A DNA stretch of 64,000 nucleotides from Bacteroidales bacterium (GTDB lineage Bacteria; Bacteroidota; Bacteroidia; Bacteroidales; GCA-2748055), in the NCBI GenBank assembly GCA_046485075.1, contig JAWOHR010000150.1:21918-85917 (forward strand), in the 5' to 3' direction. Of this stretch, positions 27,839 to 28,027 are shown one piece after another. Positions within the stretch are counted from its first letter, which is position 1; every line of letters begins with the position of its first letter. Both the position numbers and the translations under genes were made by a program. Below the pieces are notes generated by a model. The model saw only the letters and a program-made list of their open reading frames with translations. It did not search any database and was not told the origin of the DNA.

Positions 27839-28027
27839 CTGAGCACTGTCCACTGAGCACTGAGCACTGAGCACTGAGCACTGAGCACTGAGCACTGTCC
27901 ACTGAGCACTGTCCACTGAGCACTGTTCCCTGAGCACTGTTCCCTGAGCACTGTTCCCTGAGCACTGTTCCCTGAGTACTGTTCCCTGAGCACTGTTCCC
28001 TGAGCACTGTTCCCTGTCCACTGAGCA
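27839..28027 (-). repeat. Heptanucleotide tandem array, 27 units, fused to the TAG stop of the DUF2147 gene
   Basis: Plus strand: CTGAGCA x15, CTGAGTA x1, CTGTTCC x7, CTGTCCA x4, with no indel across 189 nt. Minus strand reads TAG-TGCT CAGTGGA CAGGGAA CAGTGCT... Confidence 0.95.

Follow-up and report, generated by a model that had tools for sequence, protein, structure and literature searches.

We analysed a 64,000-nucleotide stretch (hereafter the window) of a Bacteroidales bacterium metagenome-assembled genome (MAG; contig JAWOHR010000150.1 of assembly GCA_046485075.1), in which a minus-strand gene encoding a DUF2147 domain protein runs at its stop codon into a tandem array of heptanucleotide units, referred to as array 1. 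On the plus strand, 27839..28027 is made up of 27 CTGNNNN units in register with zero indels: CTGAGCA (15 copies), CTGTTCC (7), CTGTCCA (4) and CTGAGTA (1). These show a higher-order pattern, with a run of six CTGAGCA units followed by seven 14-mers, and Tandem Repeats Finder (TRF) reported a period of 14 with 11–12 copies. The units and their arrangement had been described by an earlier reading of the letters alone (the sequence-only reading), whose counts were all reproduced here. In gene orientation the order is TAGTGCT CAGTGGA CAGGGAA ... CAGTGCT CAGTAAT, that is, a first unit TAGTGCT, then 26 CAGNNNN units of the types CAGTGCT, CAGGGAA, CAGTGGA and, once, CAGTACT, and last a degenerate CAGTAAT. 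The first three bases of unit 1 are the TAG stop of the DUF2147 gene; the fusion of array and stop codon proposed by the sequence-only reading is therefore real, with the stop lying 3 nt outside the range given there and exactly in register.

Array 1 is non-coding: the DUF2147 stop bounds it on one side and a conserved non-coding module on the other. Three overlapping minus-strand open reading frames (ORFs) of 119, 84 and 61 aa that cross it, already noticed in the sequence-only reading, are artefacts of a repeat that is stop-free, and for annotation the DUF2147 gene ends at TAG. Most relatives likewise end this gene in TAG, several of them without any array, which suggests that the stop codon predates the array. 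The coordinates of the features discussed here are collected in Table 1.

Table 1 Features of the window associated with the two heptanucleotide arrays.
Feature	Position	Strand	Basis and remarks
Heptanucleotide array 1	27835..28030	-	28 in-register units, counted in gene orientation
DUF2147 ORF	28028..28498	-	Ends in TAG at 28028..28030
DUF2147 gene, 147 aa	28028..28471	-	Adjoined by array 1; P0001 100% identical (NCBI name DUF2147 domain-containing protein, Bacteroidales bacterium); PF09917 match
TAG stop of DUF2147 gene	28028..28030	-	End of the ORF
Conserved non-coding module	27603..27832	-	At the 3′ boundary of array 1, outside the repeat; alignment of 20 regions
TGGCAY-N5-WTG element	27704..27719		Within the module
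Terminator hairpin	27620..27645		Consensus fold, covariation, terminator scan
Heptanucleotide array 2	50318..50387	+	Same family, 10 units; TRF, unit count
cydB (cytochrome bd subunit II)	49190..50320	+	P0127 100% identical; PF02322
T7 run	50388..50394		Directly 3′ of array 2
Conserved 42-aa ORF	50431..50559	+	Downstream of array 2; from sequence, called in relatives

A second array of the same family (array 2), absent from the sequence-only reading, stands behind cydB. It lies 22 kb from array 1 and on the opposite strand, each array following its own gene, and its first three bases are again the TAG stop (50318..50320). The ten units read TAGTGCA CAGTAAA CAGTGCA CAGTGCA CAGTGGA AAGTGCT CAGTGGA CAGTGGA CAGTGCT CAGTGCA; CAGTGCT and CAGTGGA are among the units that the two arrays, both within 64 kb, have in common. 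TAG ends 15 of the 57 long ORFs in the window, and only at DUF2147 and cydB is it followed by TGC plus repeats. A pattern of three CAGN4 units followed by CAG matched the window 26 times, against 0.00 matches expected from 100 dinucleotide shuffles, and every one of these matches lies in array 1 or array 2. Since the two arrays occupy opposite strands, their orientation tracks the gene and not the direction of replication. In four relatives (L177, L178, L180 and L181) a 42–43-aa gene is likewise called behind cydB, which places array 2 in the spacer of two co-oriented genes.

Orthologous loci were found through cluster members of the DUF2147 protein; an exact look-up of the window's own protein returned no record. 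Synteny around array 1 (locus 1) is intact in the relatives, and the flanks are nearly identical, with ACCTGGAC[A/G]AAGAAA before the array and TGCGTT[G/T]AAAAACG.. after it. The number of units differs widely: 28 in the window, 12 in L303 (DUF2147 identity 143/147 aa), 11 in L127 (139/147), about 5 of the TAGTACT/CAGTACT type in L128 (123/146) and one, a single TAGTGCT CA, in the three independent assemblies L129–L131 (132/147). Relatives at 79–81% DUF2147 protein identity have no units, their stops reading TAG ACTAAG.. or TAG AGAGCC... The first unit TAGTGCT and the last unit CAGTAAT are kept in L127 and L303, and the interior varies in number and type. Scanning metagenomes with the DUF2147 protein yielded only relatives of no more than 81% identity; they helped to delimit the conserved module described below, and among them only L142 and L144 have tracts of 2–3 units behind the stop.

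The same holds at the cydB stop (locus 2), with 10 units in the window, 5 in L178 and L179, 3 in L177 and none in L180. Full-array alleles that share both flanks (window, L127 and L303 at locus 1; window, L177 and L178 at locus 2) differ by whole units only. A hypermutable slipped-strand tract was one role suggested by the sequence-only reading, with length polymorphism between strains as its test, and both allelic series pass it. The counts for L128 and L180 need care: these ENA contigs contain many split or truncated genes (AI-2E transporter, NrfD, cydA, cydB), probably indel errors of a noisy long-read assembly. At the site of array 2, L181 (88% CydB identity) carries about 17 T[AG]GTAAA units at 4132..4298, which are diverged but still NAGTNNN, followed by two copies each of CCAATTA and CTAATAA.

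We aligned 20 orthologous regions (protein identity 61–95%, by tblastn or direct count) to characterise the sequence behind array 1. The ~190–230 nt between array and terminator form a conserved module that is kept with or without the array. It contains a box that includes a TGTACG-N4-CGTACA-type palindrome and CGTTCACTTTT, a TGGCAY-N5-WTG element that resembles a sigma-54 -24/-12 promoter, and an invariant body, TGAAAACAAATCTTACGTCCTTT ... TTTTTAGGTTTAAGTGGTTAG. This small-RNA-like body is ~85 nt long, or about 120 nt in relatives with an extra hairpin. The terminator hairpin noted in the sequence-only reading is present, shows a compensatory UA/CG change in its stem and is the sole terminator-like site of the region. 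An Rfam search of 27550..28100 gave best scores of 14–16 bits, against gathering cut-offs of 50 or more. Judged from this sequence architecture, the module may be an independent small-RNA gene, possibly sigma-54-dependent, with the candidate RNA at 27612..27695 on the minus strand. The proposal of a ~380-nt repeat-containing 3′ untranslated region (UTR) is thus doubtful, as its ~190-nt spacer is this module, with its own terminator; in annotation, a separate conserved regulatory and small-RNA module is a likelier reading of the stretch behind array 1 than a long 3′ UTR. In more distant relatives the DUF2147 stop is followed at once by an ordinary terminator hairpin, where this lineage has the array.

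Neither array shows signs of being a structured element. Fold z-scores against dinucleotide shuffles were 0.8, -0.8, -0.4, -1.2, 1.1 and 0.5 for array 1 folded together with its flanks on either strand, for array 2 and for two orthologous arrays. A structured RNA element was accordingly rejected for the window arrays, which fold no better than shuffles, and terminator and promoter scans called nothing within either array. Array 2 with its T7 run forms only a weak, non-significant stem, short of an intrinsic terminator. In a mononucleotide-shuffle test on the wider class described below, sense-strand arrays had a median z of -1.9 and antisense arrays +0.3, with +1.6 for array 1; we treat the better folding of the sense strand as an effect of composition and G-U wobble, not proof of structure. 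The only match at gathering score in an Rfam search of the window was a tRNA at 23730, and permissive thresholds also gave nothing at the arrays. There is no inverted partner array near either one. Other identities were rejected: a CRISPR array, as the 7-nt units are contiguous and without spacers; an insertion like a miniature inverted-repeat transposable element, as the array ends have no common flanks or target duplications; a replication-oriented element, given the opposite strands of the two arrays; and a translated repeat, as TAG serves as a stop at the window ORFs counted above and in most relatives' DUF2147 gene.

The sequence-only reading knew of no described element of this form. This does not hold, as heptanucleotide repeats, some overlapping stop codons on the coding strand, have been published (PMC4692102, PMC4679880), and the window arrays are a new example of that class rather than a new kind of element. 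Rehm et al. 2015 described intergenic heptamer repeats in Xanthomonas (GGGAATC) and Nostoc (GGGGA(C/T)T; CCCCAGT is the Nostoc repeat strand), located nearest to the 5′ neighbouring ORF whatever its orientation and in some cases overlapping a stop on the coding strand (PMC4692102). Xanthomonas genomes have 70–75 convergent pairs each, most repeats are transcribed, length and sequence vary among close relatives, G-rich heptamers form quadruplexes in vitro, and a function was not established (PMC4692102). The window arrays resemble these repeats as tandem 7-nt intergenic units that are variable among relatives, and both of them overlap a stop on the coding strand. They differ in that their CAGTGCT/CAGTGGA/CAGGGAA units are not G-tract units, in their Bacteroidales MAG host and in that both are solo.

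MacGregor 2015 described TAACTGA repeats, whose complementary strand reads CAGTTAT, from Beggiatoaceae, Cyanobacteria and five Bacteroidetes (PMC4679880). Arrays reach 43 copies in several Bacteroidetes and Cyanobacteria, and strains differ by 7-nt indels (PMC4679880). In the Beggiatoa genome most sets have 2–6 copies and closely precede start codons, with the polarity reversed; one case lies directly behind a stop codon, in the same orientation as the window arrays, and S1, Csp and CsrA-type binders were proposed (PMC4679880). The window arrays share with them the ACTG/CAGT core, genome-specific units, Bacteroidetes hosts and 7-nt indel steps. However, the window units read GCACTGA, CCACTGA and TCCCTGA on that strand and lie downstream of stops, which sets them outside the TAACTGA repeats in the strict sense.

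A further relative is the family of short tandemly repeated repetitive (STRR) sequences of heterocyst-forming cyanobacteria, whose units reportedly are CCCCAGT, TTGGTCA and CAACAGT (Mazel 1990), the first and last of which share the CAGT core. STRRs are dispersed tandem heptanucleotides, and the window arrays are alike as tandem heptanucleotides with this core; they are not STRR members in the strict sense, having other units and a Bacteroidales MAG host. The STRR repeats of Calothrix are cited in both papers, which also cite Mrazek 2007 for heptamers as the commonest long simple sequence repeat (SSR) in many genomes and for polymerase slippage as their proposed origin (PMC4679880, PMC4692102). 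With in-register tandem 7-nt units, a non-coding site and whole-unit variation among relatives, the window arrays have the features of long SSR or STRR-like repeats. Our literature search returned no paper establishing a function for heptamer repeats, and in a 2022 preprint on Nostoc the binding partner of the repeat was still to be found.

To place the window arrays within a wider class, we searched a 596-Gb genome collection with a 20-base pattern, (CAGTGNN)x3+CAGTG, for which about one chance match is expected. It matches at least 120 loci in genome contigs and, again, at least 120 in viral contigs. The carriers listed include Acidobacteriota, Planctomycetota, Chloroflexota, Cyanobacteria, Bacteroidota, Verrucomicrobiota, Deltaproteobacteria and a Beggiatoa relative, with Algivirga, Hymenobacter, Flavobacterium and Scytonema among the cultured strains. 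The counts that follow refer to the matches listed. TRF periods of 7, 14 and 21 account for 180, 65 and 37 of 458 arrays, a large excess, and many of the arrays have other units. A co-oriented long ORF stops within 10 nt of the array start at 40 of 117 arrays, compared with 9 of 117 for converging ORFs, so the suggestion that such arrays abut stops in gene orientation stands as a strong bias but not as something that always applies. The preferred stop-to-array offsets are +3, -4, +10 and 0, which put the stop in register with a unit; the median gap from stop to array is 4.5–8 nt, and that from array to next gene about 78 nt. Class-wide, arrays point the 5′ end of their CAGT strand towards the closest gene boundary. 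Beyond the published repeats our additions are modest: a CAGT(G)-core family that spans many phyla and phages, AGT as its constrained core, a near-absolute convergent polarity in the sample (both detailed below) and a clean allelic series in the window lineage.

Some members of the class have unusual arrangements. In a deltaproteobacterial MAG (L071, 6930..7800), seven tandem copies of a ~105–118-nt unit each contain a GATAAT-like box, 4–6 CAGTGG[TA]/CAGTGA[ATG] heptamers and a CCCGGA..TCCGGG hairpin, an arrangement that resembles tandem small-RNA genes with a heptamer-array body. Array pairs were seen in the IMG/VR phage contigs L235 (across the whole locus), L225, L206, L254 and L185. In the L235 spacer at 1830..1992, the two arms use different variants, CAGTAAT and CAGTGGT, which gives the bottom-strand RNA a stronger hairpin than the mRNA; the same was seen in one L185 spacer but not in a second L235 spacer.

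Taken together, we consider it probable that array 1 is a slippage-driven CAGT-core heptanucleotide microsatellite that fills a dispensable spacer, from the DUF2147 TAG stop to the next constrained element. Whole 7-nt or 14-nt blocks would be gained and lost, most likely by slipped-strand mispairing rather than unequal recombination, with the first and last units staying fixed while the interior drifts; the block of seven 14-mers is consistent with recent duplications of two units at a time. Both copy number and the make-up of the units may drift fast because 7-nt loops would be poorly seen by MutS-type mismatch repair; in E. coli, loops above about 4 nt are poorly repaired. Presumably transcribed as part of a 3′ UTR, the array appears not to be essential, since some close relatives are without it, and if it influences expression at all, it probably does so in a modulatory way, as a spacer or a G/U-rich single-stranded tail. 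The docking of arrays on stop codons could stem from microhomology-guided deletions between the stop and a TAG-like or TGA-containing part of a unit, from selection linked to translation termination, or from polar growth. A test for growth polarity, measured as decay at array ends, gave only a weak asymmetry, and not the same one in the bacterial and the viral set.

Several observations sit uneasily with purely neutral slippage. Across 561 units not forced by the search pattern, mismatch to the modal unit at positions 1–7 was 14, 9, 4, 7.5, 14, 12 and 26% (chi-square p = 1e-25), so that positions 2–4 (AGT) vary least and position 7 most. Unlinked loci of one genome often share the full 7-mer, exemplified by CAGTGAC on five Scytonema contigs, where an array either has a stop triplet no more than about 4 nt away or runs into its own TGA; the two window arrays have units in common as well. 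Among the matches listed, pairs of arrays that lie on opposite strands and within 150 nt of each other converge in 17 of 17 bacterial and 120 of 121 viral cases, usually at a distance of 4–35 nt, giving a strict polarity of 137 convergent pairs to 1 divergent overall. Some phage contigs with portal, head-tail connector and tail adaptor genes have convergent pairs in nearly every intergenic spacer, spanning from stop codon to the next Shine-Dalgarno sequence and folding at -47 to -72 kcal/mol; arrays that fill the spacers of a packaged genome are hard to reconcile with junk. Recurrence of one core across phyla is likewise unexplained by neutral slippage alone. In addition, the lengths at locus 1 and locus 2 rank alike in four genomes (28/10, 12/5, 11/3 and 1/0), a suggestive hint at a genome-wide determinant, with n=4 and two of the four pairings inferred from a shared source sample alone. 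Given the constrained core, the units peculiar to each genome, the fixed polarity and the phage evidence, a functional reading stays in play, and the two forms it could take, an RNA-binding platform or hairpin pairs with solo half-sites, together claim about one third of our confidence.

The better placed of these, a tentative alternative that we rank well below the slippage-driven microsatellite, is that the array acts as a functional RNA element. Equally spaced single-stranded (CAGUGNN)n sites, one every 7 nt with an AGU core, at the start of the 3′ UTR, would bind a cold-shock-domain, S1, RRM or ring-shaped protein and act on mRNA decay, termination or ribosome recycling. The binding sites of HutP and TRAP, regularly spaced NAG triplets that for HutP are UAG-N4 repeats with a period of 7, offer a likeness in mode of working only, through NAG triplets at a fixed period; they comprise 3–11 triplets in the 5′ leaders of specific Firmicutes operons and have a known protein, whereas the window arrays have 10–28 units behind stop codons and no known protein. 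The position of both window arrays, on the coding strand right behind a stop, agrees with an RNA element, as do the class-wide bias to such sites, the constraint on AGT, units that are genome-specific over unlinked loci and the place of array 2 between cydB and a co-oriented downstream ORF. Transcription of most Xanthomonas heptamer repeats (PMC4692102) and the proposal of S1, Csp and CsrA-type binders (PMC4679880) point the same way, and the seven tandem small-RNA-like units of L071, with 4–6 CAGTGGN motifs, resemble a sponge RNA. Yet no candidate for a binding protein was found here or is known, close relatives have none or one unit at both loci, and unit composition changes freely among them. 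Elsewhere, both among the matches listed and in published repeats (PMC4679880), the repeat precedes start codons with its RNA polarity reversed, and no single RNA reading fits both arrangements.

A broader proposal, which we regard as doubtful and slightly less probable than an RNA element in the window, would treat CAGT-core arrays as one cis-element system across phyla and phages, read or built by a putative trans-acting factor. Such a factor might be a single-strand nucleic-acid binder, a hairpin-processing enzyme or a unit-adding enzyme that sets unit sequence and array length genome-wide and places arrays with fixed polarity at gene boundaries. The arrays would then act in mRNA processing, stability or translational coupling, and those of the window would be two working or half-working sites. 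If true, a dedicated factor behind the array rules would mean a widespread, unrecognised layer of gene-end organisation.

It is unlikely that array 1 is the orphan arm of a hairpin system, in which the working unit would be (CAGTNNN)n - loop - (NNNACTG)m between genes and solo arrays would be half-sites. Such hairpins would act like repetitive extragenic palindromes (REP) and bacterial interspersed mosaic elements (BIME), RNase III sites or translational-coupling hairpins. REP/BIME (REPIN) elements are abundant, genome-specific and extragenic, stand at gene 3′ ends, often as inverted pairs of fixed polarity with singletons too, and a REP is a single imperfect palindrome of about 35 nt. The likeness is again one of working only, as to gene 3′ ends, pair polarity and the occurrence of singletons; the window arrays are tandem 7-mers, not palindromic and without a nearby inverted partner, and so fall outside REP/BIME. 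The consistent convergence of bacterial and viral pairs, the strongly folding phage pairs in stop-to-Shine-Dalgarno spacers and the 70–75 convergent pairs per Xanthomonas genome (PMC4692102) all suit paired hairpins. Against them, neither window array has a partner, as is true of 143 of the 177 arrays in bacterial loci among the matches listed, and both fold no better than shuffles, and for these reasons a hairpin system says little about the window.

A contingency (phase-variation) locus, tuning the DUF2147 gene, the small-RNA-like module or the genes after cydB, is very improbable. Copy number is highly variable, as it would require, and array 2 alters the distance from cydB to the 42-aa ORF. 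However, a 7-nt change behind a stop codon cannot shift the reading frame, array 1 lies upstream of the whole module with its box and promoter and leaves promoter spacing unchanged, and neither promoter nor 5′ leader, where known phase-variable repeats act (PMC4679880), is involved at this site.

Even less credit is due to a DNA-level platform, whether a multivalent protein site of the omega repressor heptad type, a recombination target or a G-quadruplex, which (CAGGGAACAGTGCT)n would have to form. The regular 7-bp spacing and conserved core would suit such a platform, as would the GGG of the seven CAGGGAA units, given that G-rich heptamers form quadruplexes in vitro (PMC4692102). Nevertheless, array orientation follows the gene and not the chromosome, no partner gene is evident, and relatives show intact synteny with no rearrangement. 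The G3 tract occurs in only 7 of 28 units, 14 nt apart, a spacing poorly suited to a quadruplex, and the main unit CAGTGCT has none. A run of at least four consecutive G3 units is thus lacking: the CAGGGAA units alternate with CAGTGCT, leaving 11-nt loops, and array 2 has no GGG at all.

Mis-assembly or inflation of the array in the MAG can be practically dismissed: array 1 (189–196 nt) does exceed typical short-read length and one short-read assembly of a relative (L302) breaks off inside it, but in independent ENA, JGI and Logan assemblies both sites carry arrays that begin and end in the same units, array 2 has an identical set of 5 units in the JGI and Logan assemblies L178 and L179, and arrays of the class are present in assemblies of named cultured strains. 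Array 1 is therefore real, with some uncertainty as to whether this MAG has exactly 28 units.

Heptanucleotide arrays abound in many phyla. For a specialist in bacterial repeats the window arrays hold little surprise; the cross-phylum and phage patterns make an old question somewhat more tractable. In practical terms, the hypervariable alleles are useful as strain markers, and arrays of this kind are a known cause of assembly breaks.

Two minor observations concern the neighbourhoods of the arrays. The 42-aa ORF behind array 2 is hydrophobic, with cydB on one side and a CDP-alcohol phosphatidyltransferase gene on the other, and may encode a small, putative cytochrome bd-associated membrane protein. 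In L129, which has a single unit at locus 1, three in-frame units (CAGTGCA CAGTCCT CAGTGGA; 21 nt) lie at 525..546 on the minus strand, in the variable C-terminal tail of NrfD, where they translate as ..GHSAQSSVE.. and look like a repeat embedded in a coding 3′ end.

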